Part shown: positions 25,880-49,003 of the stretch, one piece after another
Position numbering within the stretch: position 1 is the stretch's first letter
How the letters are laid out: the number at the start of each line of letters is the position of its first letter
Translations under genes and position numbers: made by a program
Origin: an uncultured Christensenella sp.
Lineage (GTDB): Bacteria > Bacillota > Clostridia > Christensenellales > CAG-138
Direction: 5' to 3'
DNA: 49,096 bases
NCBI GenBank assembly: GCA_964509485.1
Contig: CAZDXW010000001.1
Location: 1-49,096 of the forward strand
The notes under the pieces: generated by a model
Seen by the model: only the letters and a program-made list of their open reading frames with translations
Told to the model about the DNA's origin: nothing
The model's database searches: none

Positions 25880-25884
25880 ATACG

Positions 25885-27420: not shown

Positions 27421-27443
27421 GTTATTTGCCCCCTGCTTGTTTT

Positions 27444-27482: not shown

Positions 27483-27496
27483 ATTCGCAAAATTCG

Positions 27497-30599: not shown

Positions 30600-30827
30600 T
30601 TACGATCCGACGTGCCGCTCCTGCTGGGATTCGAGCTGAACTCCCGCACGCCGCCACTTGTAGTAGGTATGCACGGAAATGCCCGCCGCCTTGCAGCACT
30701 TATTCAGCGGCAATCCGCTCTTGTATAGGGCCTCGATGTGCAGCAGCTTTACCATTGCCCATTCGTACTCTCCGCTGTTTGGCGTCATAACATTCCCCTT
30801 TTTCTCGATCATTTGATCAAATCTCAT
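30600..30827 (-). CDS. Small HTH protein, paralogue of the previous one (75 aa)
   Basis: 'LPLNKCCKAAGISVHTYYKWRRAG'. Its ATG (30827-30825) overlaps the TGA of the NlpC/P60 gene as an ATGA. Confidence 0.5.
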   Translation of the reverse strand: MRFDQMIEKKGNVMTPNSGEYEWAMVKLLHIEALYKSGLPLNKCCKAAGISVHTYYKWRRAGVQLESQQERHVGS

Positions 30828-32812: not shown

Positions 32813-32848
32813 GTCCGCTCCTCCTTTCCCACCTGTTCGGCTCATTCG

Positions 32849-33748: not shown

Positions 33749-33754
33749 GCTTCC

Positions 33755-34615: not shown

Positions 34616-34640
34616 GCAGCCCCCGTGTTTTTCTCAAGCG

Positions 34641-35636: not shown

Positions 35637-36385
35637 CACGGTTCGCCTCCGGCTTGTTCTGTTTCGGTCATTCTTGCGACGAGAATCATTCTTCCGTTCG
35701 TCGTTCCTTCCGCGCAGGTGGACAAGGCGACGATCCGGTCCCGATCCGTCAGATCCGCCCCGCGGCGGAACGTTGCATCCTGCTGAATGTGCTTTGCCAG
35801 CGCATTCCAGCCGTCTGCCTCCAGCGGCAGATTGAAGAGCGGAGACGTGTACGCGTCCACTTCGAGAAACGCAATCATCTCCAGTTGATAGGTCTTGCCC
35901 GGCAGATACAGCCAGCCGGTTTGATGTTCGTCGAAATAGGTCTTGTCCGCAAATTTCTCCAAGTCGCCGAACATCATCCCGCCAGCCATGTGGTGCCCAT
36001 AGATCAGCGAATACTGATCCGAAAAGTCCTTGCTGCAGCGGTAGTCCAGAAAGATGCTGCCGCCGAGCGAATAGTCCCCGTAGATATCCTGGTTGAGATA
36101 CTTTGTGTTGTCGTCTGCCCGCAACACGGGGTAGTCGATGTTTGTGTCGTCCACCGTGAGCCACGCGCAGACCTCCGCGTTGATTGCCTGTAGCTCCGAA
36201 AGGGAGGGATTGGAAACGTCCGGTTTGAAGTGCATGACCTCGCTGGACACGCCCGCCTTGTTCAGAACCGAGTACGAGTCCCAGAGCGCGTACCCTGCAT
36301 AAAACAGGATGACGAGCAGCACCAGAATCAATGCCAGGTTCAGCAGCCTGTCCAGGCCGCGGATTAACCGGTCCGCCGTTTCCAA
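35636..36385 (-). CDS. Class B sortase (pilin polymerase candidate)
   Basis: N-terminal TM. Motifs 'AWLTVDDTNIDYPVLRADDNTKYL', 'LIYGHHMAGGMMF', 'ALSTC' and 'RMILVAR'. Confidence 0.82.
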   Translation of the reverse strand: METADRLIRGLDRLLNLALILVLLVILFYAGYALWDSYSVLNKAGVSSEVMHFKPDVSNPSLSELQAINAEVCAWLTVDDTNIDYPVLRADDNTKYLNQDIYGDYSLGGSIFLDYRCSKDFSDQYSLIYGHHMAGGMMFGDLEKFADKTYFDEHQTGWLYLPGKTYQLEMIAFLEVDAYTSPLFNLPLEADGWNALAKHIQQDATFRRGADLTDRDRIVALSTCAEGTTNGRMILVARMTETEQAGGEP

Positions 36386-36414
36386 TTCCCTTCCCTCCCG
36401 ACTTCATTATTTGG

Positions 36415-37752
36415 TTACTTGCGTTTCCTGAGCAGGATCACGACCAGGAGGATCGCAACCACGCCGAGCAGCGCATAGGGCAGGATGTTGAGCAGCACGC
36501 CCGTCGGCGTCACAGACTCCTTGTTGTTCGTGAAGTTCTGCTCGTTGACCGCACCCGCGCCCGTGAAGATTGTCTGCTGGTTGGTCGTTTTATTGGTCGT
36601 TACCGCCGTCTTAACCGTCGTCAGCACCGCCGGGGTAGCCGTATTGCCGTGTTCAACGGTGATCGTCGTGCGGTAATCCGCCGTTCCGCTCTCTGTCGTC
36701 GTCACGCGCTCGCCCGACGGCAGGCCGATGATCTGGATGTACTGGCTGTGCGTCAGCGTGAACGTTCCGGAGTTCGAAATGGTTCCGGTTCCGCCCGCCA
36801 CCGCGGTGTCCGCCGCCGTGCCCGTTCCGCCGATTGCGTTGTCGCTGCCCATCTCATACTTCTGATAGGTATAGCTTGCCGTGTCGGCGGCTCCCGCCGG
36901 CGTGACCAGTCCAAGCGTAAACGAGAATGCCAGGTTCGGGTCCGCGATGTCACCGGTGACCAGTTTCGTAACCGTCAGGGCTGCCGTGTTGTAGTCGTTG
37001 ACAAACGGGTAGCTGATGTTGCGAACGGCTCCGTCCGTAGCCGGAGGCAGCACGATGCCGATTTTACCGACGTCCTCTTCGCCCGGGTTGTTCGTGATCG
37101 GTCCCAGATTGCCGTTGTCCGGCCCGGTCAGGGTCAGGTTGCTGGTGTTGGTGGTTTCCCACGCCGTAATCGCGCTGACGTTTACCACCGGGTTGCCGCT
37201 CGCATCCAGTAAGGGCGTGCCGTCGTCATTCAACACGTTGGTGACGTAAACGTTGATGTAGTAGACCGTTTCGTCATAGTCCACACCGGAGATCGGGGAT
37301 CCCGGAACGGTACCCAGCGTATCGGTCGTGCCGGGGATGCGCTCGGTGAGCCGATAGGTGTAAATACCCGCTTGCGTATAGGTGATGTTCCCCGTCGTGG
37401 TGGTCTGCGTCTGCGTCGTGCCCGTTGCCGTCGCCGAGAAACCGCTCACAGTGATGAGCTGCGCACCGGTCGTTCCGCCCGGCATTGGCAGGTTCGCCGC
37501 GGTATACGCAATCGACCCTGCGCTCGTTGGCCCCGCCGTATAGCCCACCGGCTCCAGCAAAAAGCCAAAGCTCGTGACCGCCGGAAAGACCCCTGCCGTC
37601 GTCGCCGTCAGCGTCTTGCCAACGGTGATGTTTGCGCTGTTGTTGTGGCTCGCCGGATCATCCGCCATGGATGTGGTGAACGGTGCCATCACCAGTGCCA
37701 GAGCGAGCAGCATCATCAGCGCTCTTCCAAGTTTTCCGTAGTTGCGTTTCAT
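36415..37752 (-). CDS. Backbone pilin candidate, two-domain FctA/Spy0128-like, VTPTG sorting signal
   Basis: Signal peptide. Domain 1 reads 'ITVGKTL...GIYTYRLTE...YDETVYYINVYV...YPFVNDY'. Domain 2 reads 'LTVTKLVTGD...FSFTL...QNFTNNK'. The C-terminus is 'VTPTG-VLLNILPYALLGVVAILLVVILL-RKRK'. Its position relative to the SipA-like gene and the sortase mirrors fctA. Confidence 0.8.
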   Translation of the reverse strand: MKRNYGKLGRALMMLLALALVMAPFTTSMADDPASHNNSANITVGKTLTATTAGVFPAVTSFGFLLEPVGYTAGPTSAGSIAYTAANLPMPGGTTGAQLITVSGFSATATGTTQTQTTTTGNITYTQAGIYTYRLTERIPGTTDTLGTVPGSPISGVDYDETVYYINVYVTNVLNDDGTPLLDASGNPVVNVSAITAWETTNTSNLTLTGPDNGNLGPITNNPGEEDVGKIGIVLPPATDGAVRNISYPFVNDYNTAALTVTKLVTGDIADPNLAFSFTLGLVTPAGAADTASYTYQKYEMGSDNAIGGTGTAADTAVAGGTGTISNSGTFTLTHSQYIQIIGLPSGERVTTTESGTADYRTTITVEHGNTATPAVLTTVKTAVTTNKTTNQQTIFTGAGAVNEQNFTNNKESVTPTGVLLNILPYALLGVVAILLVVILLRKRK

Positions 37753-37849
37753 TGATTACCTCCATTTGTATTTTGTTTGTTTTTGTTATTGATAAAGCAG
37801 TCCTCAGCTTGCTTTTATAACCGTTGATCCAACCCGCGCCTGCGTTTGT

Positions 37850-38428
37850 TTATAGCCCGCGGTTTCGCAGCAGTGAAATCACTTTCCCTTTGATATCCCC
37901 TTTCGCAACCGGGCCAAAATCCCGGCTGTCCTGCGCGTACTCGCGGTTGTCCCCGAGGATGAACACCTCGTTTCCCGCGAGTGTAACCGGTAGAACGGTT
38001 GCCCGCCCTTCGGCGCTTGTCGCGGAAAACACCTCTTCCTGCTGAACGCTGCCGTTGACAATCAGCTGTCCATCCGCGTTGAGATCCACCGTGTCTCCGC
38101 CCATTGCGACAATGCGCCCGTAATACAGAACTCCGTTCTTTGCGTAGGCAACAACGTCGCTGACGTTTTGCTCCGCTTCCAGCCGGTAAAAAATCACCAT
38201 GTCTCCGTCCCGCAGGCGAGGATACATTCCCTCGCCGTTTACAATTCCGACTCCAAAGAGGAAGGAGAGCGCCAGATATCCGCATATCGCAATTGCGGCA
38301 ATCTTCTCCGCCAGTGCCCATGCACTGTGCCGGATCTCCAACCTTCGCCTGCGCGTCTGGAAAATCTGTACAACGCGTTCTTTATCGTCGACCTTGTGTT
38401 TCCCGCTCATTCTACTCGTTTGTTCCAT
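37850..38428 (-). CDS. SipA/LepA-like signal-peptidase-I homologue lacking the catalytic Ser and Lys (pilus assembly chaperone candidate)
   Basis: It has the S26 fold boxes, but box B reads 'GEGMYPRL' (Gly where Ser is expected). Box D reads 'YGRIVAMGGD' (Gly where Lys is expected). Box E 'GDNREYAQDSRDFGPV' is retained. Start taken at ATG 38428 (MEQTSRM). The alternative at 38461 overlaps the upstream gene by 32 nt. Confidence 0.8.
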   Translation of the reverse strand: MEQTSRMSGKHKVDDKERVVQIFQTRRRRLEIRHSAWALAEKIAAIAICGYLALSFLFGVGIVNGEGMYPRLRDGDMVIFYRLEAEQNVSDVVAYAKNGVLYYGRIVAMGGDTVDLNADGQLIVNGSVQQEEVFSATSAEGRATVLPVTLAGNEVFILGDNREYAQDSRDFGPVAKGDIKGKVISLLRNRGL

Positions 38429-38429
38429 C

Positions 38430-38897
38430 TCACTTGCCCGAGGCGCTCTTTCCTCCGCCATACAGCTTCAAGATTTGGTTGGCCGAGAATGCCTGCGCGG
38501 AAGCGGTCTCATCTTCGCGGCTCTGCCCAAACTGTCGCTGTTTCTGCTTTCGCGTTTGCGTCTCACTCGGAACAAGCGCCGCCGTCTGCTCTTGCCGCTC
38601 CTGAACTCTCATTGGTTCCTTCTGCATGGCCTCTTTCAGCTGATTCCACTCGTCCCGCATCCGCTTCACTTCCTCGTCGTTCTCGCGGATCATGTCCTGC
38701 AGCTGCAACGCGTAGTTGCGCCATTCGCCAACCGCCCCCTGCGAGTTTTGGTGCTGAACATCCAGCAGCTCGTCGTATTCCCCATGCAGTTTCTCGAATA
38801 CCCGCCAGACGTCCTCTTCGTCCACTCCGCCGATGATCCGATTCCGAAATTTTACGGAGTTCAAGTATCTCTCCAGTTGTTTGTAACTCTTTGCCAT
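38430..38897 (-). CDS. Coiled-coil protein with a DivIVA-like N-terminal motif
   Basis: 155 aa with no signal peptide. 'VKFRNRIIGGVDEEDVWRVFEKL' resembles the DivIVA/GpsB N-terminal 'F..GFRGYD..EVD.FL' motif. Heptad-rich Glu/Gln/Arg sequence follows. Confidence 0.55.
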   Translation of the reverse strand: MAKSYKQLERYLNSVKFRNRIIGGVDEEDVWRVFEKLHGEYDELLDVQHQNSQGAVGEWRNYALQLQDMIRENDEEVKRMRDEWNQLKEAMQKEPMRVQERQEQTAALVPSETQTRKQKQRQFGQSREDETASAQAFSANQILKLYGGGKSASGK

Positions 38898-38920
38898 TCC
38901 AATTCATCCCAATTCCTATT

Positions 38921-41900
38921 TCAGATTCTCTTCGCGTTTCGTTGCCTGCTTTGCTTTTTACGGTGCGCCAGAGAGAGCGACAACGTCAGCACTCCGCCGG
39001 CCAGAAGGATCATCAGAGCATATGGATAGATGTGCAGCAGAATCCCCGTTGGTACGGTGCCAATCAACGTGTTTGTAAACAGCAGATTGACGTCGCCTAG
39101 AACGGTGCTTCCCGCTCCGGCATTGCCAACTGCGGTAAAGCTGCCACCATTCGTCTCCGTGATCTCCAGTTGATACCCACTGAAGATCAGGATTTCGGAG
39201 ATCACATAGGAGGATCCAACCGGAACTTTGTCGATCGTGATGCTTTGTCCGTGCTTGAGCGGAATGATCGCAAACCCGCTCAGGATCGTTCCGTCCGCCG
39301 GAGCTTCCACGCCTGCAATGGTGGATGCGCCGGTGTAGGCCAGCGACGCTCCTGCGTCGTTGAGCACGATTCGGAAGTTGAACTCCTCCTTCGGATCGGC
39401 CAGATTGCCCTTCACGATCTTGGAGATCGTGATCGACTTGGTGCCGACGCGATGGTATGTTTCGTTTGTCAAAAGCGAATCCGTTCCCGTCGTCACGTTC
39501 GCGCTGTTCACATAGAATGTTTCGAGTGCCCCCGCGGTCACCATCTCAATGGTCACCTGAAACGCAAACTGGTGCTGCTCGCTGGTTACGGGAGCGTCCT
39601 CCCAGAAGACCGTGGTGACGCCGGTCGCCGTATCCGTTGACCAGGTCATTCCCGGCGTATAGGTTCCGCTGTCCTTGACCAGCGTTAACCCCGCCGGAAG
39701 TACATCCGTAATATCAACCGTTCCAATGTTCGCAAGCGCATAGGCGTCATTCCAATCGAGGTCGATTGAATAGGTAATCGTGTCGTTGATTGCCGCTTCC
39801 ACCGGTGCTGTTGGCGTTCCGTTGTTGATACTCCCCGCGTTTAGCCTTGCGTTTTTACTCGCTGACAACAGCACACCGTATCCGAAGTCCATGTTATCGA
39901 CGGACGCGGTTATCCCTGTCAAGGTTACGCCGCTCACGATGGCCCGGGTCCCCGTCTCTTCCGCGTCGTTATCGGTAGAGGCCGTCTTCAGCGTTATCTG
40001 CAATCCGTCCGGCGTGGTCATCACGATTTGGTAAGACCCCTGCGGGATTCCGTTCAGGTTGTATTCGCCGGCCGCATTGGTCGCCGCAATGAGAGGCGAA
40101 CCGTAGATTCCGTTGACCGGCGTCGTATACGTGGTATCCCCGGCGGCATAGAGTCCAACCGTCATGCCGGGAAGCCTGCTCTCGGCGGCGTCGATCATGC
40201 CGTTCCAGTTCGTATCCGCCCAAACCCGCCCGTTGACCGAACGAATGATGGCAAAGCCGATGTCCTGGTTGTTTACTGCCGTCGCCGTCGTGAGATCAAT
40301 CCCGCTGATCACGGCGTTTGCGCTCTCTGCCAATGCGTCGTTGTCGGTCGAAACCGTCTTTAACGTTACAATATGATTGTCCGGCGTGAGCGCAACCACT
40401 TTGTACGTGCCATATGGAATCTGAGCGAAGCTGTACGCGCCGTTTGCATCCGTCGTGGTTGTCAGCGGTGTACCGTTCAGGTTGTTCGCAGGCGTTGTAT
40501 AGGTTGTGCTCGTGCTTGGATACACGCCGACCGTAAGCCCGGATACGCGGGGTTCGCCGGTTTCCAGCATGCCGTCCCAATCGATATCCGTCCAGACGGT
40601 ACCGCTGATCGAGTGGCTGATCGTAAAGCCGAAATCTTTATGCACATAGGACGTCGCAGTCGTTAAATCAATGGAGTTGATAACAGCCCGTGTGCCGGAC
40701 GGTACGGCGTCGTTGTCATTCGCCAGCACCGTGACGACGTATCCGTTTGGTGTTGTCGTAACCACTTTGTATGTACCATACGGAATGGAGGATAATGTGT
40801 ATCCACCCGTCGAAGTGGTTGTTGTCGTCAGCGCGACCCCATATATATTGGTAACCGGGGTTGTATAGGTCGTATCCGTGCTGGCGTACAGACCCACCGT
40901 TAAGCCGGAGAGCAGCGTCTCGCCGCCTGTTCCGCTCATGCCGTCCATGGTTCCGTTTGCGTTAGCATCCAGCCAGGCGTTGCCGGTTACTCTTCGATCC
41001 GGCGCAAAGCCGAAGTCCATGTTACTAGCAGACGTTGCAGTGGTCAGCCCAACGTTGCTAATCAAAGCCCGTGTACCGGAGGGACTTGCATCATTATCAT
41101 TCGCCAATCTTGTTACGATATACCCGCTTGGCGTCGTAATTACGACCTTATAGGTTCCGTAAGGGATCAGCGAGAAGCTGTAGGTTCCGGTCGCACTCGT
41201 TGTCGTCGTCAACGATTGGCCATATAGATTCGTCAGAGGAGTGGAATAGGTGTTATCCGTATTTGCGTAGATTCCAACCGTCAAACCAGAGATTCTGCTC
41301 TCTCCTGTGTCGATTGTGCCGTCCGTGTCCGTGTCATACCAGACGCGGCCGGCAATCGTGCGATTTGAAGTAAGCCCGAAATCGATGTTTGTCACAGCCG
41401 GAGTTGTGGTCGAAACCGAAACATTTCCCGTCCGCGCAATCGTCTGTGGGGAAAGCATGGTCGGCGACGCATCGTTGTCATTCACCAACCGAGTCATCAC
41501 ATAACCGCCCGGTATGGAAATCTGAAGGATATATACGGTAGCATCAATAGACGAGAACGAATAATCGCCAGATGCATTTGTAACCGCAGTTGCGATTGGG
41601 TTGGTAAAGAAATAGTCGTCGTTCCGGTAGGCTGTTACCGTGATTCCGGGCATTCTGGTTTCGCTGGTGTCGATTGTTCCGTCGGAATCCGCATCGTTCC
41701 AGATTCTGCCGCTGATCGATCCACCGACAATCGTAAAGCGGTTCACATAGGACGTTTCGTCCCCCGAATTAACCGTCCGCCCGGTCACGCTGGAGTAGCT
41801 CGTGAAATCGCTTGCATTGTATCCTTCGTAGTTGCGGTCGTTATAGGTAACGCTCGCCTGATTCTTTACGACCATTCCAACGGGACCCGTTACGCGAGCC

Positions 41901-43000
41901 TGATACGAAATGGTGTGGGTCATACCTTCGCCGTAAGCAAGGTTAATGCCAATGGTGTTTCGGGAGCCCCACGTCACGCCGCCGTTCGTATTGGACGTGC
42001 CCGCGGTTGCCCCGTCGCCAAAGTTGACGCGTAGTTCGTCCGTCGTGCTGTTAAACGTCGCAAGGCTTCCCGCTTGATAACCGTCAATCGTTACGCTGCC
42101 GGAGACGAAGTCGAGTCCGTCGCTCAGGATGTCCCGAAACACACAGCGGGATGCATCGGACTCACCCCAGTTCGTAATGTTGACTGTGACGGTAACAACC
42201 TGGCCTCGCCATGCGGTTGTGCTGCCAGACTGCAGCGTTGTGATGCTTTTTTTTGCAATCAGTTTAGAGCCGGTCTGAAACGCAACGTCGTCTAGGAAGT
42301 TACCGTTCTGTACGTTTCCAGTCCAGGAAGAAACGGCTGCAAAGTCAAATTCTGTACTGGTTTGGCCTGCTGGCACTGTATATGCGCCGCGGTAGTAGTA
42401 CCATTGGGTTCCGTTGTTGTTTGCCGTTTGGATTAGCTGCGAACCGGAAGGCGCGGTCGTTGGTGAACCGGAAGGCCGCAGATAGAAGTTCATTTGATCG
42501 TATTTTGTCGAACTGTTCCCAATCGCCCGATGGGCGAACTGCCAATATACTCTGGAACTAGGTGTAGTAGAAACAACCTGATACAAACGCCCTGGAAAGA
42601 GGCAATTCAGCTCAGCATACTGATTTCCATCCGCCTGCGTTGTAGCGAAGGTATATGGAACACCGGAATTCCCAGTCGGATCGACAACTTGCAACTCGAT
42701 TAAGTAAGCATTTGGATTCGTACCATAAGCCGCATAGTCGACAGGGCAGGTTGACCAGCTCGCCATTTGAGCAATCGTATAGCCGTCAAATCGAGCGCCG
42801 TCACTGGCACGAACGCGGGTAACCGTTGGAGATTGGAAACTACCGTTAAGAAAATTAATCGGCAGCGGCTTCGTTTCGTTGGGCACATAGTAAACCTGTG
42901 TCCCGGCCTGTGCCGACTTCACAGGGAGCAACAATGCCAACGCTCCAATCACCAAGGCGACACCAATAAAAGACAGAGCTCTATTCTTACGTTTCTTCAT
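38921..43000 (-). CDS. Large sortase-anchored tip-adhesin candidate (1359 aa)
   Basis: Start at ATG 43000 (MKKRKNRALSFIGVALVIGALALLLPVKSAQA). The inferred architecture, N- to C-terminal, is as follows. First an N-terminal jelly-roll/lectin-like domain (NGSFQSP...GNFLDDVAF). Then a DUF11-like domain and five SdrD-B/CnaB-like repeats. Then a second DUF11-like domain and a SpaA/FctA-type isopeptide domain (ITISKIVKGN...FNFRIVL...LLFTNT). The sorting signal is 'TVPTG-ILLHIYPYALMILLAGGVL-...HRKK'. Confidence 0.85.
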   Translation of the reverse strand: MKKRKNRALSFIGVALVIGALALLLPVKSAQAGTQVYYVPNETKPLPINFLNGSFQSPTVTRVRASDGARFDGYTIAQMASWSTCPVDYAAYGTNPNAYLIELQVVDPTGNSGVPYTFATTQADGNQYAELNCLFPGRLYQVVSTTPSSRVYWQFAHRAIGNSSTKYDQMNFYLRPSGSPTTAPSGSQLIQTANNNGTQWYYYRGAYTVPAGQTSTEFDFAAVSSWTGNVQNGNFLDDVAFQTGSKLIAKKSITTLQSGSTTAWRGQVVTVTVNITNWGESDASRCVFRDILSDGLDFVSGSVTIDGYQAGSLATFNSTTDELRVNFGDGATAGTSNTNGGVTWGSRNTIGINLAYGEGMTHTISYQARVTGPVGMVVKNQASVTYNDRNYEGYNASDFTSYSSVTGRTVNSGDETSYVNRFTIVGGSISGRIWNDADSDGTIDTSETRMPGITVTAYRNDDYFFTNPIATAVTNASGDYSFSSIDATVYILQISIPGGYVMTRLVNDNDASPTMLSPQTIARTGNVSVSTTTPAVTNIDFGLTSNRTIAGRVWYDTDTDGTIDTGESRISGLTVGIYANTDNTYSTPLTNLYGQSLTTTTSATGTYSFSLIPYGTYKVVITTPSGYIVTRLANDNDASPSGTRALISNVGLTTATSASNMDFGFAPDRRVTGNAWLDANANGTMDGMSGTGGETLLSGLTVGLYASTDTTYTTPVTNIYGVALTTTTTSTGGYTLSSIPYGTYKVVTTTPNGYVVTVLANDNDAVPSGTRAVINSIDLTTATSYVHKDFGFTISHSISGTVWTDIDWDGMLETGEPRVSGLTVGVYPSTSTTYTTPANNLNGTPLTTTTDANGAYSFAQIPYGTYKVVALTPDNHIVTLKTVSTDNDALAESANAVISGIDLTTATAVNNQDIGFAIIRSVNGRVWADTNWNGMIDAAESRLPGMTVGLYAAGDTTYTTPVNGIYGSPLIAATNAAGEYNLNGIPQGSYQIVMTTPDGLQITLKTASTDNDAEETGTRAIVSGVTLTGITASVDNMDFGYGVLLSASKNARLNAGSINNGTPTAPVEAAINDTITYSIDLDWNDAYALANIGTVDITDVLPAGLTLVKDSGTYTPGMTWSTDTATGVTTVFWEDAPVTSEQHQFAFQVTIEMVTAGALETFYVNSANVTTGTDSLLTNETYHRVGTKSITISKIVKGNLADPKEEFNFRIVLNDAGASLAYTGASTIAGVEAPADGTILSGFAIIPLKHGQSITIDKVPVGSSYVISEILIFSGYQLEITETNGGSFTAVGNAGAGSTVLGDVNLLFTNTLIGTVPTGILLHIYPYALMILLAGGVLTLSLSLAHRKKQSRQRNAKRI
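39878..41719 (-). repeat. Five tandem repeats of about 120 codons each (SdrD B-repeat / CnaB-like) inside the adhesin gene
   Basis: Each unit starts with the (I/V)xG(R/T/N)(I/V/A)W.D...(D/N)G pattern: ISGRIWNDADSDGTID, IAGRVWYDTDTDGTID, VTGNAWLDANANGTMD, ISGTVWTDIDWDGMLE, VNGRVWADTNWNGMID. Each ends in (D/M)(F/I)GF. Units 2-4 share IPYGTYKVV. Confidence 0.85.
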
Positions 43001-43016
43001 ACATCCGTTCCTTACC

Positions 43017-44327
43017 TTAGTCGATGACTTGTATAGCGTTACTGTCGCCTTCTTCGCCCGGCGTACTGTTCGTCTTTGCCGTTTGCGACGCATCCTTCAG
43101 AACGACGATTTCCGCGGTTACCCGCCCTCCGCCGCCAAATCCATCCTCGACATGCATACTCAATTTGTAAGTGCCCGCCGAATCCGTATCGTACCTCCCA
43201 CTCCATGAGATGGGGATGTTCCGGTAACCGCCGTCTCGCATGAACGCGCCCGTTTGGCTTGGCAGATGTACGCTTTCGCCTTCCAGAACAACAAAGCGCA
43301 TCAGAAGTCCGTCCTCGGATATGCCACAGAAACTTTGAATCTCGTTGCAGTCCGCAATGCGTACGCTTGCCGTCACCGGTTCGCCCGCGTAGGTATAGGC
43401 GGTGGAGGGAGTGCTCACCTCTGGCGTTTGCACCGGTTCTTCCGTTTGATCGGGCACAGGGCTCTCTTCGATTTGCTCCGTCGTCTCCACCGTCTCGGAG
43501 GAGGGATTCAGTATCGACGCCGTGAACACCCAGGGGCCATAGCCATACCGGCTCTCGATTGCATAAATCGTCTCATTCTCGTAGAGCTCGTTTGCTTCGT
43601 CCGCAACGCTGGCCCAAGTAACCGGAACCTCAATCGGTACCCCGTTGCCGTTGATTGCGGTAAGCGTCGCAGGCAGCGGGATATTCTCCTCCGAAGTGCC
43701 GCGCTCCACGAAGATTTCGATCGGTTCGTTCACAAAGGAAGTAATCACAGAATCGAGCGCGGGATCGGGCGTCGGGGTGATCTCCGGCGAAGCGCTTCCA
43801 TCCGGCGTTAAGCTCGGTTCCGGCGTTTCGGAAGCATCCGGCGTAGCGAAAGGCTCCGCTTCCTCTGCCGCCTGCACCTCAACCTCAATAGTTGGCAGCG
43901 TTCCTTCGTATATGTATCCCGGCTGAAGTACCGCGGCGAAGAGGTATGTGCCAATGGAATCCGGCGTATAATCCTCGCTCACCCAGGCAACGGGCACGTC
44001 GCGCAGTTCCAGTATCTCGGTCGGCGCTTCGCTTTGCTCCGCATCCTGCGAAGGTTCCTGAGGAATCACAACGCTTGCGGGGAGCGTATCCGGCAGCCCG
44101 ATTTCTTCCGCCGCTGTTCCAAGCGGCACAACCAGCTTTGCTGTGCGCTCCTCGGAAAACGAAGCGATAGCGACTTCTCCGTCCGCCAGAGCGCGTACTG
44201 TTTTCGTGCCGCAGGCGGTAGCAAAGAGGCAAAGCACCAGCAGCATGCAGGTGAATATCCGTGCCCTGCTTAACCCGGTATGCGTCGTACCCATGTTTCT
44301 TTGGCTCTCGCCTGATTTCTGATTCAA
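43017..44327 (-). CDS. Lipoprotein with three Big_4-like Ig modules; first gene of the pilus operon
   Basis: TTG start at 44327, placed 7 nt after AGGAGG. An alternative ATG lies at 44294. Lipobox LFATAC. Three 'V(P)V.W....Y...S.GTY' modules are present (VPVAWVSEDYTPDSIGTYLF, VPVTWASVADE, IPISWSGRYDTDSAGTYKL), separated by Pro/Glu/Thr linkers. Confidence 0.7.
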   Translation of the reverse strand: MNQKSGESQRNMGTTHTGLSRARIFTCMLLVLCLFATACGTKTVRALADGEVAIASFSEERTAKLVVPLGTAAEEIGLPDTLPASVVIPQEPSQDAEQSEAPTEILELRDVPVAWVSEDYTPDSIGTYLFAAVLQPGYIYEGTLPTIEVEVQAAEEAEPFATPDASETPEPSLTPDGSASPEITPTPDPALDSVITSFVNEPIEIFVERGTSEENIPLPATLTAINGNGVPIEVPVTWASVADEANELYENETIYAIESRYGYGPWVFTASILNPSSETVETTEQIEESPVPDQTEEPVQTPEVSTPSTAYTYAGEPVTASVRIADCNEIQSFCGISEDGLLMRFVVLEGESVHLPSQTGAFMRDGGYRNIPISWSGRYDTDSAGTYKLSMHVEDGFGGGGRVTAEIVVLKDASQTAKTNSTPGEEGDSNAIQVID

Positions 44328-44560
44328 GTGGATTCCTCCTCATTTGCGTCATATCTTTATATTGGAGTTTTGCACTGTGCCCATTGTGTTCTCGTTCGCA
44401 GCTCGGCGATAGCGTCTTATCCTGTGCCGTTGGACTCCCCGAATCGCCGTTTTCGGTTTCGCTTTTCCAGCGTCTTTTCGAAAAAATGTTTTAAAGATTT
44501 CTTTATTCACGATTTATGTTGTTTTCCACAGTTTCATTTCTAACACTTCGTAAACCACTC

Positions 44561-44583
44561 CACAATGTACGGAAATACAGTTT
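44561..44583 (-). promoter_or_regulatory. Conserved box, copy A (upstream of the pilus operon)
   Basis: The plus-strand sequence CACAATGTACGGAAATACAGTTT is nearly identical to copy B at 45398-45420. It lies directly after the terminator of the second response-regulator gene. Confidence 0.45.
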
Positions 44584-44590
44584 GGACATA

Positions 44591-44628
44591 AAATTAAGTA
44601 CAGTTCAGCGAACTAAACTGTACTTAAA
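44591..44628 (-). terminator. Intrinsic terminator after response regulator 2
   Basis: Hairpin AAGTACAGTT...AACTGTACTT followed by a T-run on the minus strand. Confidence 0.65.
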
Positions 44629-44656: not shown

Positions 44657-45328
44657 CTACTTCCTGTCCTCCATCCATCCCATCTTCGCTGCGTACGCGA
44701 TTACTTGTGACTTGTTCTCCATTTGCAGTTGCTCCATGATCGAAGCCATGTGATATTTTACGGTTCGTTCGGTGATTCCAAGAAGATCGCCCGTTTCTTT
44801 ATAGGTCGTTCCTTTTGCTACCGCTTCCAGTACTTCCATTTGTCGTTCAGTGAGCCCGCTGCCGATGTGTGTGTTCGCCCCCGAGAGGAACACACGATTT
44901 TTCAGATCGCTGCTACTGATCTCCCGGAGCAGCCGCGCCGCCAGCCTGGGCGAGAGCGGAGCGCCTCCGTTTTCCAAGTCCAACAGCATATCAACCAGCT
45001 CCGCTCCGTTCATGCTCTTGAGCAGATAGCCGGATGCGCCCAGTTTAATTGCCTGGAACAAATCTTCGTCGTCCTCGGACGTGGTCAGCATAATGATTTT
45101 TATCCCCGGCATCCGCCCCTTGATCTGACGGAGGGCTTCAATCCCGTCGCATTCCGGCATGCGGACATCCATTAAAATAATATCCGGTGTAAGCGTTTCG
45201 GCTTTCTGCACCGCTTCCCTTCCGTTGCAAGCCACACCGACAACCTCTACGCCATAGGTTCCCAATAAAAACTGCAAACTGTCGGTAAACAGTTTATGAT
45301 CGTCTGCCAGCAGTATTCTCGGCGCCAT
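44657..45328 (-). CDS. NarL/LuxR-family response regulator (copy 2)
   Basis: Start at ATG 45328 (MAPRILLADDHKLF). Receiver domain (DIILMDVRMP, IIMLTTS, GASGYLLK) followed by a LuxR HTH (LTERQMEVLEAVAKGTTYKETGDLLGITERTVKYHM). Confidence 0.88.
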   Translation of the reverse strand: MAPRILLADDHKLFTDSLQFLLGTYGVEVVGVACNGREAVQKAETLTPDIILMDVRMPECDGIEALRQIKGRMPGIKIIMLTTSEDDEDLFQAIKLGASGYLLKSMNGAELVDMLLDLENGGAPLSPRLAARLLREISSSDLKNRVFLSGANTHIGSGLTERQMEVLEAVAKGTTYKETGDLLGITERTVKYHMASIMEQLQMENKSQVIAYAAKMGWMEDRK

Positions 45329-45397
45329 GTCCCATCCCTCGTTTCCCAATTCCTTTTACATCGTTCCCCCTTTATTTAACACTGATTGTAACTATTT

Positions 45398-45420
45398 CAC
45401 AATGTACCGATATACAGTCC
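45398..45420 (-). promoter_or_regulatory. Conserved box, copy B (upstream of response regulator 2)
   Basis: The plus-strand sequence is CACAATGTACCGATATACAGTCC. It shares CACAATGTAC and ATACAGT with copy A, and ACCGATATACA with copy C. Confidence 0.45.
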
Positions 45421-45430
45421 AGCAAAATGA

Positions 45431-45465
45431 AAAAAGTACAGTCGGCTTCTTTCGACTGTACTTTT
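45431..45465. terminator. Intrinsic terminator after response regulator 1
   Basis: AAAAGTACAGTCG-GCTTCTT-TCGACTGTACTTTT, with A and T runs on the two sides. Confidence 0.7.
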
Positions 45466-45487
45466 CAAAAACTGTACTCTGAGTTCT

Positions 45488-46153
45488 CTATTTTTGATGG
45501 ATCCATCCCATCTTCGTCGCGTAGGCGATCGCCTGCGCTTTGTTTTCTGTTTGGAGTATCTCCATAATGGTCGCCATATGATACTTCACGGTTCGTTCGG
45601 TGATGTGCAGCTGGCTACCAACCTCCTTATAGGTCGCGCCTCGAGCCACCGCTTCCAGCACCTCAATCTGACGTTGTGTCAACGGGTCATCATTTGCTGC
45701 ATCCACCTGCGCAACAACGGCGTTTGTCGGCTCTCCACCACGGCGAAACTCATTGAGCAGACGCGTTGCCAGCTTCGGCGCGAGCGGAGCGCCGCCTTTC
45801 TCGATATTGAGCAGCATTTCGACCAGTTCATTCCCGTTCATGCTTTTCAGCAGATAACCGGACGCCCCCAGCTTGATTGCCTGAAACAGGTTCTCGTCTT
45901 CATCGGACGTGGTCAGCATGACCACCTTGACGTCCGGCATCTTGCTCTTGATTCGCTTCAGTGTCTGAATTCCATTGCTCCCCGGCATCATAATGTCCAT
46001 CAGAATCACGTTTGGCTTCAGTTCTTCGGCTTTTTGCAGTGCTTCAAACCCGTTTTCCGCTACACCGAGAACCTCGATCCCATAGGTTCCCAACAGAAAC
46101 TTCAAACTATCGGTAAACAGCTTATGGTCATCGACAAGAAGTATTTTTAACAT
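45488..46153 (-). CDS. NarL/LuxR-family response regulator (copy 1, cognate position after the kinase)
   Basis: MLKILLVDDHKLF..., receiver domain plus LuxR HTH. It is a paralogue of copy 2, sharing long identical runs (LFQAIKLGASGYLLKSMNG, TERTVKYHMA). Confidence 0.9.
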   Translation of the reverse strand: MLKILLVDDHKLFTDSLKFLLGTYGIEVLGVAENGFEALQKAEELKPNVILMDIMMPGSNGIQTLKRIKSKMPDVKVVMLTTSDEDENLFQAIKLGASGYLLKSMNGNELVEMLLNIEKGGAPLAPKLATRLLNEFRRGGEPTNAVVAQVDAANDDPLTQRQIEVLEAVARGATYKEVGSQLHITERTVKYHMATIMEILQTENKAQAIAYATKMGWIHQK

Positions 46154-46165
46154 ATGCTATCCTCT

Positions 46166-47848
46166 CTATTCCAACGGAAGAAACAGTTGGATCTGGGTTC
46201 CTTTTCCGGGTTTTGACTCGATGCTCAGCTCCGCACCCATTTCCGCCGCGCGCTCACGCATAATGTTTAATCCAAAGTGATTCTCAATGGAAATATCCGG
46301 GTCAAACCCGCATCCATCGTCGCGTAGAAAAATCCAGAGGGCGTCTTTTGTTTGTCGCATCGTCAACGCAACCTGCTTTGCGCCTGTGGCGTGTTTACGA
46401 ACGTTGTTCAACGCCTCTTTTAAGATATAGTAAAGGTTCACCCGGGCTCTATTGTTCAATCGACTGACGACATTCGCTCCAGTAATATTCTCGGAAACGG
46501 CAATGCCAGTCTGCCTATGAAATTCTTCCAAGGTCTCTCTGGTCACGGCGAATGGGTCTTTTTCCACCGATTGCGCCTCGCGCACGCTGTGGATGTAGTC
46601 CCGTATCTCACGGTGTGCTGTTTGCGAAATATCGACCAGTCTCGAAAGATCCCGATATACCTTTTCGGTTTCCTCATACTTGAGCTCGTTGCAGATTCCC
46701 TGCGCCTGCATGCTAATCGACGCCAGCACCTGCGCGAGATTATCGTGCAGGTCTCTGGCCAGCTTCTCGCGTTCTCTGCTGGCAACGACCGCTGTGGTTT
46801 GCTGCAGCGTGCGCTGCTGTTCCATTCGCATTTCCGTAATATCGGAAATCAGAACGACATATCCGGCGTCAACGCCTTTTTTACTCGTAATCGGCATCCT
46901 TTGCGCGCGAAGATACTTCCTGGCGCCCGCGTTCTCCTCCAACAGAATTTCGGTGGAATCACCGTTTTGCAGGTCGCACAGTTCGCGGCTCAGGCTCGAC
47001 AGAACACTCACCGCCGACATGCCGAGCAGCGACCTCTTGTTTTTCTCAAACATCAATTGAGCCGCGTGATTTACATCCGCTATGTTCCCGTAGTTGTTTA
47101 TCACGAGAATTGCAACGTTGATGTTGTCCACCGCCGCCCCTCTGGCAATTGGCGCTGAAACAAACAAGTGATAGCCGCCCGCCGCTGCGAGCACGGATGC
47201 AACGCTCAAAAAAACACCGGTAATGTCGTATCCCTTGGTCAGCCAAAACGACATCAGATAAAGCAGGCTCGGACAAATACTGATGACTGGCCCCAGTAAA
47301 AACGAAGACATTTTCATTCCGTAAATGGATTTATAGAACAGCGATTTTTGAAAGACCAGTATCATTGCAATGGCGTCCAGCGTATATGTGTAAATTGGAT
47401 TGAGCAAAAAAACCCAGGCGAAGGATCGAGAAGTGGCCGGCAGTCGCACCCCGGCGTCTATGGAAAACCCATAATACACCAATCCGGAGAAGTGCTTTGT
47501 CCAGACTAGAATCATCGATAGAATCGGAAGGATAAGAAGAAGGATGAGCGTTTTTGATTTCAGCCATTCCCGCTTGCCTCCAAACTGAAGCACCATAATA
47601 AACCAGATTGTATGCAAAGCCGTATACAAACAGAATGTAGCGTTTTCCCAGAAATTCTGCGTGTAAAAGTCTGCGCTCAGGATCGAGAGTCCCTTGCAGA
47701 CGATCCAGCCGCCTAGAAAAAGCATGCTAAGGCCAAACAGTTTTGCACCCCTGACTCTGTAATAGATCACCGAAAACAAACCCTGCATCATGACGATAAA
47801 AAACGATATCACCATGGACCATATGCCAGGAATGTACTTGAAATACAT
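46166..47848 (-). CDS. Sensor histidine kinase: N-terminal 7TM domain - PAS - HisKA_3 - HATPase (NarL-type partner)
   Basis: About 7 hydrophobic helices in the first 230 aa, then a PAS-like segment. The H-box is 'LARDLHDNLAQVL' (HisKA_3), followed by 'LKEALNNVRKHA' and 'DDGCGF...GLNIMRERA'. Confidence 0.88.
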   Translation of the reverse strand: MYFKYIPGIWSMVISFFIVMMQGLFSVIYYRVRGAKLFGLSMLFLGGWIVCKGLSILSADFYTQNFWENATFCLYTALHTIWFIMVLQFGGKREWLKSKTLILLLILPILSMILVWTKHFSGLVYYGFSIDAGVRLPATSRSFAWVFLLNPIYTYTLDAIAMILVFQKSLFYKSIYGMKMSSFLLGPVISICPSLLYLMSFWLTKGYDITGVFLSVASVLAAAGGYHLFVSAPIARGAAVDNINVAILVINNYGNIADVNHAAQLMFEKNKRSLLGMSAVSVLSSLSRELCDLQNGDSTEILLEENAGARKYLRAQRMPITSKKGVDAGYVVLISDITEMRMEQQRTLQQTTAVVASREREKLARDLHDNLAQVLASISMQAQGICNELKYEETEKVYRDLSRLVDISQTAHREIRDYIHSVREAQSVEKDPFAVTRETLEEFHRQTGIAVSENITGANVVSRLNNRARVNLYYILKEALNNVRKHATGAKQVALTMRQTKDALWIFLRDDGCGFDPDISIENHFGLNIMRERAAEMGAELSIESKPGKGTQIQLFLPLE

Positions 47849-47917
47849 ATGCTTGAACCTTCCTAGTCCTTTTCTTCTTGCGGCACCGAATTCAATTCGT
47901 CTAGCATTTTGTTATCC

Positions 47918-49003
47918 CTATCGAATATAGGGATTCACCGTATAATACGACGGCTCTCTTCCATACTCCAACTGATCGGCAACAGCCATCACGCAGAAAT
48001 AAGCTGTTTCACTAAAATGATAATAGCTATACCAAATCGATTCGTCTTTCGGGGTTGTTTGCGGGTCACTTACATCCGATTCGTATGCGTAGCAATACGC
48101 TGCTCCCGTATAGCCGACCTGGTCGAGTGCCCGCAGTGCGTCCGGCACGATGTCCGGATCCAGAATGAACATCGTGCGGATTTGCGGAAACGTGTTCAAC
48201 GCGTCCGTTACCGCCTGTTTAGCCGTTCGATTCTCGTCTACATAGGCAATGCCACACAAGCCGGATGCTCCGTCTCGGGCAATTCCATAGTGTGCGTCTC
48301 GCAGCAGCCCTTCTTCCAGCCAACCGGTTGTCAGGCTGTCGGGATTGCTGCCAATTGCATAGGCGGGGCCAGTTTCGCTTGCATGCGCCATTTCCGTCCC
48401 CAGGTATTGAAAATCAAACCACACCGAAGAGCTGCAACAGTCGTACCGTTCCCCTTCGTTGAGCAGCATGACACAGGGAACGCCTGCATCCTTACATCGG
48501 TTATCAAATGCCTGAATCGCCTTCTCGTCCAAACCATCCGGATCAATGATGATTGCATCCACGTTCTGTTGAAGCAATTGTTCCAGCGACTCCTGTGCGT
48601 TTTTAGCAGCGCTGTTTGGTACAACATCGACCAGCCACTCGTAATAGTCCGCCTCGTCAACAAAAGCTTGCGCAAGATTTTTATAATATGTCGTGTCCAG
48701 TGTTGGCAGAATAACACCGATTGTATTCGGAGTAAGCTTGGAATCGTCTGTTCTCAGAAGCATTTCGCCGGAACCATCCGGCCCTAAAACCGCATAAAGA
48801 AGGAATATGGACAACGCAAGCAAAACCAAAGTACCCGCTGCAAACAGCAGCAACTTTGTTTTGGGATGTTGCTGTTTCGGCGTATCCACCGGTTGATCCA
48901 ATTGTGTCGGAGGCTTCGGCGTCATACATTCTGTATGCAATCCACGCCGAATGCTTTCATCTGCGCTTGTCGGAATACTCCCATCATCATTTGGGTTAGT
49001 CAT
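47918..49003 (-). CDS. Membrane-anchored periplasmic-binding-protein (type I sugar-binding) homologue; sensor accessory candidate
   Basis: N-terminal cytoplasmic tail followed by one TM helix (LLLFAAGTLVLLALSIFLLYAVL). The PBP-I pattern 'IGVILPTLDTTYYKNLAQAF...NVDAIIIDPDG...GVPCVMLL' follows. No ABC permease or ATPase is adjacent; it is followed instead by the kinase. Confidence 0.7.
   Translation of the reverse strand: MTNPNDDGSIPTSADESIRRGLHTECMTPKPPTQLDQPVDTPKQQHPKTKLLLFAAGTLVLLALSIFLLYAVLGPDGSGEMLLRTDDSKLTPNTIGVILPTLDTTYYKNLAQAFVDEADYYEWLVDVVPNSAAKNAQESLEQLLQQNVDAIIIDPDGLDEKAIQAFDNRCKDAGVPCVMLLNEGERYDCCSSSVWFDFQYLGTEMAHASETGPAYAIGSNPDSLTTGWLEEGLLRDAHYGIARDGASGLCGIAYVDENRTAKQAVTDALNTFPQIRTMFILDPDIVPDALRALDQVGYTGAAYCYAYESDVSDPQTTPKDESIWYSYYHFSETAYFCVMAVADQLEYGREPSYYTVNPYIR

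Follow-up and report, generated by a model that had tools for sequence, protein, structure and literature searches.

A putative sensor module of an anchored binding-protein homologue, a 7TM histidine kinase and two NarL-type regulators linked to a sortase pilus operon

Analysis of the window, i.e. the whole 49,096-nucleotide stretch of DNA examined here, supports a functional tie between a four-gene sensor module and a sortase pilus operon. The module, composed of genes encoding a binding-protein homologue, a histidine kinase and two response regulators (RR1 and RR2), very probably controls pilus production, judging from its co-inheritance with the pilus operon and from a conserved DNA switch common to both. 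We lean, by a small measure, towards a fuller reading in which the module is dedicated to the pilus, the kinase has the binding protein as its co-sensor, and the two regulators act as a cascade. All four ORFs lie on the minus strand where the initial annotation had placed them, and features of the locus are summarized in Table 1.

Table 1. Coordinates of the sensor module, its intergenic elements and the pilus operon
Feature	Coordinates	Strand	Description	Evidence
Binding-protein homologue gene	47918..49003	minus	361 aa, TM-anchored, type-I fold	Pfam, hydropathy, AF2, Foldseek, alignments
Spacer, binding-protein gene to kinase gene	47849..47917	minus	69 nt	
Histidine kinase gene	46166..47848	minus	560 aa, HisKA_7TM-PAS-HisKA_3-HATPase_c	Pfam, hydropathy, ortholog alignment
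RR1 gene	45488..46153	minus	221 aa, REC + GerE/LuxR HTH	
Terminator-like hairpin, IR1 copy 1	45431..45466	minus	GAAAAGTACAGTCG...CGACTGTACTTTTT + T-run; fold -19 kcal/mol, z -7.05	
Operator/promoter copy 1 (putative)	45373..45417	minus	ahead of RR2	
RR2 gene	44657..45328	minus	223 aa from ATG 45328; REC + GerE	
Terminator-like hairpin, IR1 copy 2	44594..44627	minus	TTAAGTACAGTT...AACTGTACTTAA + T-rich tail; fold -18.4 kcal/mol, z -6.44	
Operator/promoter copy 2 (putative)	44537..44580	minus	ahead of pilus operon	
Pilus-operon leader	44328..44536	minus	~200 nt	
Pilus operon (probable target)	30824..44327	minus	10 genes, sortase type	
Big_4 lipoprotein	43017-44327	minus		
SdrD_B/DUF7601 tip adhesin	38921-43000/43093	minus	sorting signal TVPTG	
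DUF6115	38430-38897	minus		
S26 peptidase	37850-38461	minus		
DUF7601 pilin	36415-37752	minus	sorting signal VTPTG	
Sortase	35636-36385	minus		
FctA-type pilin	34641-35636	minus	sorting signal GPKTG	
Class B sortase	33755-34615	minus		
S26 peptidase	32849-33748	minus		
CHAP/NlpC hydrolase	30824-32845	minus		

The first gene of the module encodes a protein with a type-I (cluster B, CUT2-like) periplasmic binding-protein fold. It matches the Pfam families Peripla_BP_4 (51.3 bits, cut-off 35.1) and Peripla_BP_1 (29.5 bits), its PDB profile match is 7e7m (8e-12), and the top Foldseek matches in the PDB are the ribose-binding proteins 2ioy, 7e7m and 1drj (E 1e-12 to 1e-13; TM 0.68-0.76 on the target; 14-18% identity). 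AlphaFold predicts a two-lobe fold with high confidence, with pLDDT >90 for most of the type-I domain (aa 93-361). As the initial annotation had described, this domain is held in the membrane by an N-terminal helix, the only hydrophobic one in the protein (aa 51-69, Kyte-Doolittle mean 2.74); neither a lipobox cysteine nor an AXA site was found. The helix follows an unconserved cytoplasmic tail (aa 1-48; 0-15% identity, or absent, in relatives) and precedes a GPxGSG juxtamembrane motif, while the motif NEGERYDCCSSS (aa 182-193) is invariant across the subfamily. The anchor helix shows 38-50% identity versus 36-45% for the globular domain, a figure inflated by the hydrophobic composition of the helix. 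The family is tiny and divergent: phmmer recovered 22 representatives among 1.84 billion sequences, and the divergence was too great for the search to reach ordinary sugar-binding proteins.

The binding-protein and kinase genes are likely co-transcribed, since no terminator-like site was found within the short spacer between them. This spacing was correctly noted in the initial annotation, as was the class of the genes that follow. The kinase (HisKA_3 and HATPase_c) and the regulators (REC and GerE) constitute a NarL/LuxR-class two-component system; among NCBIfam models they most resemble NarQ/NarL, and no equivalog threshold was attained. The N-terminal part of the kinase matches HisKA_7TM (PF16927; 96.8 bits, cut-off 28.6, aa 12-224), hydropathy indicates seven TM helices (approximately residues 9-27, 39-57, 72-90, 99-117, 146-164, 183-201 and 212-230), and a cytoplasmic PAS domain, also recognized by Pfam, occupies residues 238-340. 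No extracytoplasmic domain was found in the kinase by Pfam or hydropathy: the outside loops comprise 14, ~28 (the largest, residues 118-145) and 10 aa, preceded by an 8-aa outside N-terminus. This N-terminus, MYFKYIPG, is invariant in the window and in the related loci L001, L002 and L003, and near-identical in L021 (MYYKYIPG) and L023 (MHFKYIPY). The outside loops are the fastest evolving part of the kinase (48-50% identity versus 70-78% for the TM helices and inside loops), which matches the fast-evolving binding protein, such loop speed being common in membrane proteins generally.

The RR1 gene starts 12 nt past the kinase stop codon. For RR2 the ORF list gives a TTG start at 45349 (span 44657-45349); the ATG at 45328 is more likely, and the same start is called in L001 and L002. 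Both regulators retain D8, D9, D53, T81 and K103, and their recognition helix (ITERTVKYHM) and alpha-1 segment (HKLFTDSLxFLLGTYG) are the same. Identity is higher among RR1 orthologues (77-79%) than between the RR1/RR2 paralogues (63-67%), which marks the pair as ancient and maintained. Long antisense ORFs running across the sensor region gave no Pfam match.

The ten genes downstream, in the same orientation as had been reported, form a bona fide sortase pilus operon of the FCT type with a class B sortase. FctA scores 134.9 bits and strep_pil_rpt 108.9 bits, and the class B sortase scores 144 bits, slightly below the equivalog cut-off of 153.75. As in the FCT pili of Streptococcus pyogenes, there are a SipA/LepA-like S26 peptidase, a class B-type pilin sortase, Spy0128/FctA isopeptide pilin domains and xVPTG-type sorting signals. 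The S. pyogenes pili are governed by stand-alone regulators (RofA/Nra, MsmR), and not by a dedicated module of binding protein, kinase and two regulators. [quoted passage not shown] That locus has one regulator and a binding-protein component was not reported for it (PMC8088525), whereas the window contains two regulators and a binding protein.

The order binding protein-kinase-RR-RR-lipoprotein-tip adhesin is kept in L001, L002 and L003 as far as the contigs reach, despite a binding-protein identity of only 41-43% in L002 and L003 and despite dissimilar upstream flanks. The same 7TM kinase follows the binding-protein gene in all seven close members of the family whose downstream DNA is readable (the window, L001, an ENA contig, L002, L003, L021 and L023), after gaps of 56-105 nt in L001, L021 and L023. 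The continuation into RR-RR-lipoprotein-adhesin was observed in 4/4 loci of sufficient length, which represent effectively two to three independent lineages, L002 and L003 being close kin.

These four long loci have a further feature in common. A composite element, consisting of a terminator hairpin, CTGTAT-N4-GTACATTGTG and an extended -10, occurs exactly twice in each of them, at orthologous places ahead of RR2 and of the pilus operon. The first hairpin is predicted to close the transcription unit of the binding-protein, kinase and RR1 genes, and the second that of RR2. The base of the hairpin stem, AAGTACAGT/ACTGTACTT, is invariant in all copies; conservation of a terminator stem sequence is a feature outside what the proposed model accounts for. 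In copy 1 the operator CTGTATATCGGTACA (45403-45417, TGTA-N6-TACA) is followed by TTGTGA (45397-45402), an 18-nt spacer and TGtTAAATA with the -10 at 45373-45378, from which we infer a promoter. Copy 2 has the operator CTGTATTTCCGTACA (44566-44580; centre approximately -42.5), TTGTGG (44560-44565), a 17-nt spacer and TGtTAGAAA with the -10 at 44537-44542. The exact 19-nt motif has two matches in the 49-kb window versus 0.04 expected, at these two sites only. Between the window and L002 the operator block before the pilus operon is 78% identical, compared with 37% for the remaining leader and 51% for the third-codon positions of RR2 in the same lineages. Within the leader the first ~45 nt and the RBS (AGGAGGAATCCA) are conserved and the middle is variable; an Rfam search of the leader returned no family. 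Upstream of the binding-protein gene no complete operator was found, only CTGTAY half-sites, and a similar -10 block is present there in L002 and L003. The synteny and the conserved operator/promoter block together support the proposed linkage of the sensor module to the pilus operon.

To assess the ligand pocket, the contacts of ribose-binding protein (N13, F15, F16, N64, D89, R90, R141, N190, D215 and Q235) were taken as the reference. At a reliably aligned position, R90 is replaced by E183. R141 aligns with either E231 or L229 according to the method used, never with an arginine, in an alignment-dependent and less reliable mapping. N64 corresponds to D154, D89 to N182 and N190 to D282, with the C-lobe positions lacking a reliable alignment; the aromatic pair (Y106, Y107) and several acidic positions are retained. 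By this mapping the cleft appears acidic and unlike a canonical sugar pocket, although the ligand may be a carbohydrate.

This departure from sugar binders (R90 to E183, no arginine at R141) would also suit a binding-protein-fold subunit that acts on the kinase independently of any ligand, as a scaffold, inhibitor or stabiliser, with the 7TM bundle or the PAS domain sensing and the pilus still as the output. Candidate sensor modules are present within the kinase itself, namely HisKA_7TM and PAS, and sensing could in fact reside in the cytoplasmic PAS domain; the tiny, atypical family and the conserved anchor helix point the same way. Precedents for an accessory subunit are LiaF-LiaS and YycH/YycI-WalK. 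In BceS-BceAB, LiaS-LiaF and WalK-YycH/YycI a kinase without an extracellular sensor relies on a separately encoded membrane protein; the WalK-YycHI contact is made via TM helices, and LiaS is a HisKA_3 kinase with a NarL-type regulator, like the pair in the window. The BceS, LiaS and WalK kinases have two TM helices, whereas the window kinase has seven and a PAS domain, and to our knowledge none of BceAB, LiaF and YycH/YycI has a binding-protein fold, unlike the accessory protein described here. The ligand-independent role is rather unlikely, given the high-confidence two-lobe prediction and the invariance, throughout the subfamily, of Y106, D154, E185-S193 and an LDP motif (281-283), where counterparts of ribose-contact residues lie, as would be expected of a working cleft.

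The two-component system might instead merely be co-inherited with the pilus genes, e.g. on a shared island, and regulate other genes, the intergenic blocks serving another regulator. The upstream flanks differ between syntenic loci and the placement of the locus relative to a PTS cluster is not the same in L001 as in the window, both of which are compatible with a mobile block; phage-like genes adjoin the locus in L002. The two-component system beside the C. perfringens VR-10B pilus has a likewise unproven role (PMC8088525). However, rr2 and the pilus operon are headed by the same operator, which is absent from the rest of the 49 kb; it abuts the -35 element in the position of an activator site, and the conserved block contains no other regulator gene. 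We consider simple co-inheritance improbable.

The initial annotation had drawn an analogy with the XylFII-LytS-YesN sensor (C. beijerinckii; PDB 5XSJ), in which case the binding protein, once loaded with sugar, would engage the kinase through an extracytoplasmic docking domain. XylFII-LytS-YesN and CuaD-CuaS-CuaR (R. cellulolyticum) resemble the window module in their Firmicute (Clostridia) background and in having the binding-protein gene by kinase and regulator genes rather than by a transporter, and XylFII is likewise a Peripla_BP_4 protein. The nearest relatives of the type-I fold are CUT2 sugar binders, and PTS and GH31 carbohydrate genes lie upstream in some related loci. The reported absence of adjacent ABC genes, also in keeping with such a sensor, holds downstream, where no permease or ATPase gene adjoins the module; upstream, the view is limited by the window edge, 93 nt above the start codon, and the upstream genes of related loci are PTS, GH31 or phage-like, never ABC components. 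Nevertheless, the analogy fails as a mechanism, because the window kinase has seven TM helices, no outside loop larger than ~28 aa and hence no docking domain. The kinases of the known clostridial sensors of this type carry a large extracytoplasmic domain between two TM helices, of 267 residues in CuaS (PMC10384115), and in characterised pairs every binding protein docks on such a domain (review PMC8050422). Furthermore, XylFII and the lipoprotein CuaD are made with a signal sequence that can be cleaved off, in contrast to the TM-anchored window protein, and the LytS/HAMP kinases (LytS/YesM = His_kinase PF06580) with AraC-type YesN differ from the HisKA_3 kinase and duplicated NarL-type regulators found here. 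With a non-canonical pocket and a pilus rather than a transporter downstream, sugar sensing of this type is very improbable. In LuxP-LuxQ, TorT-TorS, ChvE-VirA and HptA-HptS, a type-I or related binding protein likewise serves as the ligand receptor of a kinase (PMC8050422), a role that the window protein may have. All these kinases have a periplasmic sensor domain for docking; none is of the HisKA_7TM type or dedicated to a sortase pilus.

That the protein is an orphan substrate-binding protein without a signalling role, serving an importer elsewhere such as the CUT2 sugar ABC transporter (21650-28582) that lies with a ROK regulator 16 kb downstream, is hardly credible, given that this transporter comes with a canonical binding protein of its own (Peripla_BP_4, 190.8 bits) unrelated pairwise to the anchored one (E 0.033 over 64 aa), that a TM anchor replaces the lipobox, and that the gene is always beside a kinase gene and in none of the relatives examined beside ABC genes.

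In the favoured reading of a pilus-dedicated module, a type-II membrane protein with an extracellular, divergent type-I domain would serve as co-sensor; the architecture is evident from the sequence. Without any domain outside the membrane, the kinase would receive the signal by way of the anchor helix and juxtamembrane segment and of its own N-terminus and short outside loops, and not by sideways docking as in XylFII-LytS. The kinase would phosphorylate both paralogous NarL-type regulators, as suggested by their common specificity residues and recognition helix. The sequence layout shows RR1 to be produced along with the sensor, and RR2 from a transcription unit of its own, with predicted terminators on both sides and the putative operator ahead. 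A phosphorylated regulator would therefore activate rr2, in a feed-forward or positive feedback loop, together with the 10-gene pilus operon, since each has the TGTA-N6-TACA operator in front, with its centre near -42.5 relative to an extended -10 promoter. While the output of known clostridial three-component systems is the transporter or catabolic operon of their ligand, the apparent target of the module described here would be a pilus operon.

In the initial annotation the sensor genes were described as a type-I binding-protein fold held in the membrane by an N-terminal helix, followed after 69 nt by a NarL-type kinase and two regulators (RR1 and RR2), in the orientation of a pilus operon. 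The ORF and Pfam results agree with this description in domains, order, gap and strand (see the table), and no terminator-like site was found in the 69-nt spacer. For RR2, translation more probably begins from the ATG at 45328, which the gene calls of the related loci L001 and L002 also use. Long antisense ORFs over the region gave no Pfam match, exact-sequence look-ups of the binding protein and the kinase returned nothing, and neither an RNA family (Rfam, window) nor tRNA genes (window and L002) were detected.

Features of the sensor module, the pilus operon and other annotated regions
Feature	Coordinates	Strand	Domains and remarks
Binding-protein homologue, 361 aa	47918-49003	-	Peripla_BP_4 51.3 bits (cut-off 35.1) and Peripla_BP_1 (Pfam thresholds passed)
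Binding-protein/kinase spacer	47849-47917		69 nt
Kinase, 560 aa	46166-47848	-	HisKA_7TM 96.8 bits, PAS, HisKA_3, HATPase_c (Pfam)
RR1	45488-46153	-	REC and GerE; start 12 nt from kinase stop codon
RR2	44657-45349 (ORF list)	-	REC and GerE; 134-159 nt after RR1
Terminator stem-loops	45435-45462, 44597-44624		
Pilus operon	44327-30824	-	
Big_4 lipoprotein		-	first gene of pilus operon
Adhesin, 1,359-1,390 aa			SdrD_B x5, DUF11, DUF7601; sorting signal TVPTG
DUF6115 protein		-	pilus operon
S26 signal-peptidase homologue	37850-38461	-	
Pilin-like protein			DUF7601; sorting signal VTPTG
Sortase	35636-36385	-	Pfam Sortase 34.1 bits; masked in ORF list by spurious 588-aa ORF
FctA/Spy0128-type pilin, 331 aa	34641-35636	-	normal signal peptide, GPKTG
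Class B sortase		-	pilus operon
Second S26 peptidase	32849-33748	-	
CHAP/NlpC hydrolase		-	last gene of pilus operon
Sugar-utilisation cluster	20476-30030	-	ROK regulator, canonical CUT2 binding protein (190.8 bits), ABC ATPase, permease; DUF4432, unannotated 325-aa ORF, PfkB kinase, class II aldolase
PTS cluster	9986-13995		EIIA, HAD hydrolase, HPr, Enzyme I
LytS/YesM-type kinase, 572 aa	139-1857	-	His_kinase (PF06580)

The genes downstream of the module are tightly packed, and their content, that of an FCT-like sortase pilus locus, bears out the name pilus operon. The 588-aa ORF (34641-36407) was rejected as a single gene: its first 257 codons are spurious, and the region holds the sortase, in another frame, and the FctA pilin, the sortase stop codon overlapping the pilin ATG at 35636. 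FCT-type loci usually have one SipA/LepA-like chaperone; two S26 signal-peptidase homologues and one DUF6115 protein are encoded here. Elsewhere in the window, a LytS/YesM-type kinase, the class found in classical XylFII-type three-component systems, is encoded beside a DUF624 membrane protein at the left edge, its partners falling outside the window. The sugar-utilisation cluster is separate; it contains no operator motif of the kind described below, and its CUT2 binding protein shows no relationship to the anchored protein.

The anchored protein has one hydrophobic helix (aa 51-69, by hydropathy) after a 48-residue tail and carries neither a lipobox cysteine nor an AXA site, so its N-terminus is likeliest a type-II signal anchor. 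Its assignment to the type-I binding-protein fold holds on Pfam, on structure matches of an AlphaFold model and on profile matches to the PDB. The model (13 family members as input) has pLDDT above 90 over most of aa 93-361, and in the PDB it most resembles ribose-, xylose- and glucose-binding proteins, together with LacI/CcpA cores (at 14-18% identity, with E about 1e-12 and a TM of 0.68-0.76 on the target); the family sequence profile agrees (7e7m 8e-12, CcpA 3e-11). Within this fold the protein is an outlier. Only five relatives were found in an index of 5.8 billion proteins, and only 22 cluster representatives among 1.84 billion (E <= 1e-3), a search that did not reach ordinary sugar binders.

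Several distant relatives consist of an N-terminal cytoplasmic zinc ribbon, a transmembrane segment, sometimes a long linker, and a C-terminal binding-protein domain. The order zinc ribbon, transmembrane segment, long linker or DUF4179, binding-protein domain occurs in many relatives (P0005, P0011, P0013, P0016, P0018, P0021 and P0025; loci L022 and L023). P0005 (43% identical to the window protein) carries a CxxC...CxxC ribbon, which the tail of the window protein has apparently either lost or never had. A kinase gene adjoins the gene of P0005, and none adjoins that of P0011. The zinc-ribbon proteins seem to make up a family of one-pass receptors that is as yet uncharacterised.

Cleft residues were mapped from E. 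coli ribose-binding protein (reference sequence identical to 2DRI/1URP), using its ligand-contact residues. N13, F15, F16, N64, D89, R90 and N190 correspond to T104, Y106, Y107, D154, N182, E183 and D282, respectively; in the C-lobe, where the alignment is unreliable, methods place either E231 or L229 at R141, and none places an arginine there. Neither the mapped positions nor the neighbouring loop NEGERYDCCSSS (aa 182-193) varies among members of the close subfamily, which suggests a functional cleft with acidic, non-canonical chemistry; a sugar is a possible ligand. This invariance also counts against the alternative that the binding protein is a ligand-independent accessory of the kinase. 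Within the same loop (48425-48460), the close subfamily has an invariant pair of vicinal cysteines; at this site, relatives further off share (D/N)EGE but lack CC. Four more cysteines (C170, C177, C304 and C337) are invariant. Such residues are unusual in an extracellular domain of an anaerobe, and their role could lie in redox chemistry or metal binding, or they could pair in a vicinal disulfide.

Six loci encode close relatives of the binding protein: L001 (85% identity), an ENA contig (59%), L002 and L023 (43% each), L003, a Christensenella sp. MAG (41%), and L021 (37%). A genome search seeded with the family alignment A1 returned one related locus only. In all six the next gene encodes the same 7TM kinase, with the N-terminus MYFKYIPG, MYYKYIPG or MHFKYIPY, and in the three that are long enough (L001-L003) RR1, RR2, a Big_4-type lipoprotein and a giant SdrD_B/DUF7601 adhesin follow. 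The flanks 5′ of the binding-protein gene vary (PTS EIIA/HPr/EI, phage-like genes or GH31) and contain no ABC genes, in line with the absence of an adjoining transporter remarked on earlier. No kinase gene lies beside the more distant family members (24-34% identity). Comparison of these sequences establishes the architecture, and shows that binding protein and 7TM kinase are obligately adjacent and are inherited together with the pilus operon. Of the components compared between the window and L002/L003, the binding protein has changed fastest by amino acid identity (41-43%), against 66% for the kinase, 77-79% for RR1, 77-78% for RR2, 60-61% for the lipoprotein and 75% over the first 1,045 aligned residues of the adhesin.

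Differences in position were seen for a PTS cluster that the window and L001 (1-4001) share at 93% identity. In L001 it lies directly upstream of the binding-protein gene, and in the window about 35 kb away, past the pilus operon, with the trp operon coming next; either the order was rearranged between these close relatives or the sensor-pilus block is mobile. In L004 (5110-9047), the gene of P0017, a distant lipoprotein member (24% identity), is divergent beside that of a MalT-like AAA/TPR/GerE regulator, with arabinose-catabolic and GH31 genes in the vicinity; this hints, if faintly, at a tie between the wider family and carbohydrate genes.

The kinase contains seven hydrophobic segments, in agreement with the Pfam 7TM model. 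If the PAS and catalytic domains are cytoplasmic, its outward parts are the N-terminus (8 aa) and loops 58-71, 118-145 and 202-211, the largest of about 28 aa; Pfam and hydropathy revealed no extracytoplasmic sensor domain. In the literature consulted, HisKA_7TM is named only as a catalogued sensor domain. A structure model from the single sequence was uninformative (pLDDT 43). Neither kinase peptide patterns, scanned against metagenomes, nor the 7TM region, used in a word-indexed search, yielded a relative, and few independent sequences are therefore available for comparison. Among these, the outside loops evolve fastest (48-50% identity versus 70-78%), and the outside N-terminus does not vary among the kinases of the four long loci and is almost unchanged in L021 and L023. 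The anchor helix of the binding protein is as conserved as its globular domain (38-50% versus 36-45%); its tail is not conserved. All three features fit a route in which the binding-protein domain would sense an extracellular ligand and signal to the kinase via the anchor helix, the juxtamembrane segment and the short outside elements of the kinase. Alternatively, the stimulus may be sensed by the PAS or 7TM part of the kinase itself. The cytoplasmic tail was ruled out as the signalling part, being unconserved, and short in P0006 and P0008.

The same composite element is found 3′ of both regulator genes. It comprises a hairpin with a T-tail, AAGTACAGT-N10-12-ACTGTACTT (-16 to -20 kcal/mol, z about -6 to -7), then, 15-17 nt past it, an operator-like palindrome, CTGTAT-N4-GTACATTGTG (i.e. 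TGTA-N6-TACA), and AGTGTTA(A/G)A. Exactly two copies occur per locus, at orthologous positions, in all four loci (window and L001-L003), which rules out a mobile repeat. The 19-nt motif has two exact matches in the window (0.04 expected), and a relaxed search of the window gave no further convincing site. The 100-nt operator/promoter block shares 78% of its nucleotides with L002, compared with 37% for the remaining pilus leader and 51% for rr2 third-codon positions. A metagenome scan with the operator pattern (18 specified bases) gave 15 matches, none with related proteins or an upstream hairpin, and these were attributed to chance.

The pilus copy can be read as a promoter (TTGTGG-17 nt-TGtTAGAAA), with the predicted palindrome centre near -42.5, where a class II activator, for instance of LuxR type, would sit; in the rr2 copy the spacer is 18 nt. 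These copies point to three putative transcription units: binding protein-kinase-RR1 with a terminator at its end; rr2 with operator, promoter and terminator; and the pilus operon, which has its own operator and promoter and a leader of about 200 nt. Ahead of the binding-protein gene, where the window stops after 93 nt, no complete operator was found; CTGTAY half-sites are present, and L002 and L003 also have a similar -10 block. The stem base of the terminators (AAGTACAGT/ACTGTACTT) is invariant in 8/8 copies, while the inner stem and loop differ with compensating changes, and the operator half-site GTACAG/CTGTAC recurs in the stem arms, reversed in orientation. A plain terminator does not need an invariant stem base, so this stem may be a second protein-binding site.

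The main kinase-specificity surface of two-component regulators is helix alpha-1. This helix (HKLFTDSLxFLLGTYG) and the recognition helix (ITERTVKYHM) are identical in RR1 and RR2, and the phosphorylation residues D8, D9, D53, T81 and K103 are kept in both at all four loci. Most simply, the one kinase would phosphorylate both regulators, and both would recognise the same operator. Their 63-67% identity indicates a duplication older than the split of these lineages. Activation of rr2 and the pilus operon by a phosphorylated regulator would give feed-forward or positive-feedback amplification. RR2 might instead be an antagonist, or the two-component system might merely hitch-hike with the pilus genes, which are preceded by one of the two conserved operator copies.

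We propose, as a tentative and on balance rather doubtful reading, that membrane-anchored receptors of binding-protein fold convey ligand occupancy to a 7TM kinase without an extracytoplasmic domain, and from there through a cascade of two NarL-type paralogues to the pilus. Occupancy would pass by helix-helix and short-loop contacts inside the membrane, RR1 would turn on rr2 and the pilus operon by way of the shared operator, and Christensenellales-like gut anaerobes could as a result express pili in a switch-like, heterogeneous manner.

What this module has in common with XylFII-LytS-YesN, CuaDSR, HptASR, LuxPQ and TorTS is a binding protein that works for a kinase; its kinase and regulators are of other classes, and it has a pilus as output where those systems have a transporter. 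The likeness to XylFII-LytS-YesN suggested at first does not extend to mechanism, as the kinase lacks the defining docking domain. LiaFS, BceS-BceAB and WalK-YycHI are intramembrane-sensing kinases with membrane partners, none of which, to our knowledge, has a binding-protein fold; the working principle is nearer to theirs than to that of XylFII-type systems. All solved or dissected binding-protein-assisted kinases use an outside domain of the kinase (PMC8050422). In C. perfringens VR-10B, a two-component system beside an FCT-like pilus locus was noted, with no role established yet (PMC8088525).

The signalling architecture, if real, would be previously undescribed. A purely membrane-embedded kinase working with a binding protein would widen the ways in which such signals cross the membrane, and the uncharacterised HisKA_7TM domain would gain its first concrete partner. 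The two regulators, with the second copy separately controlled, would form a compact natural circuit of feed-forward or positive-feedback type. The module also offers an operator-level hypothesis for when one poorly studied group of gut Clostridia builds adhesive pili, a timing that bears on colonisation and on host or glycan sensing.
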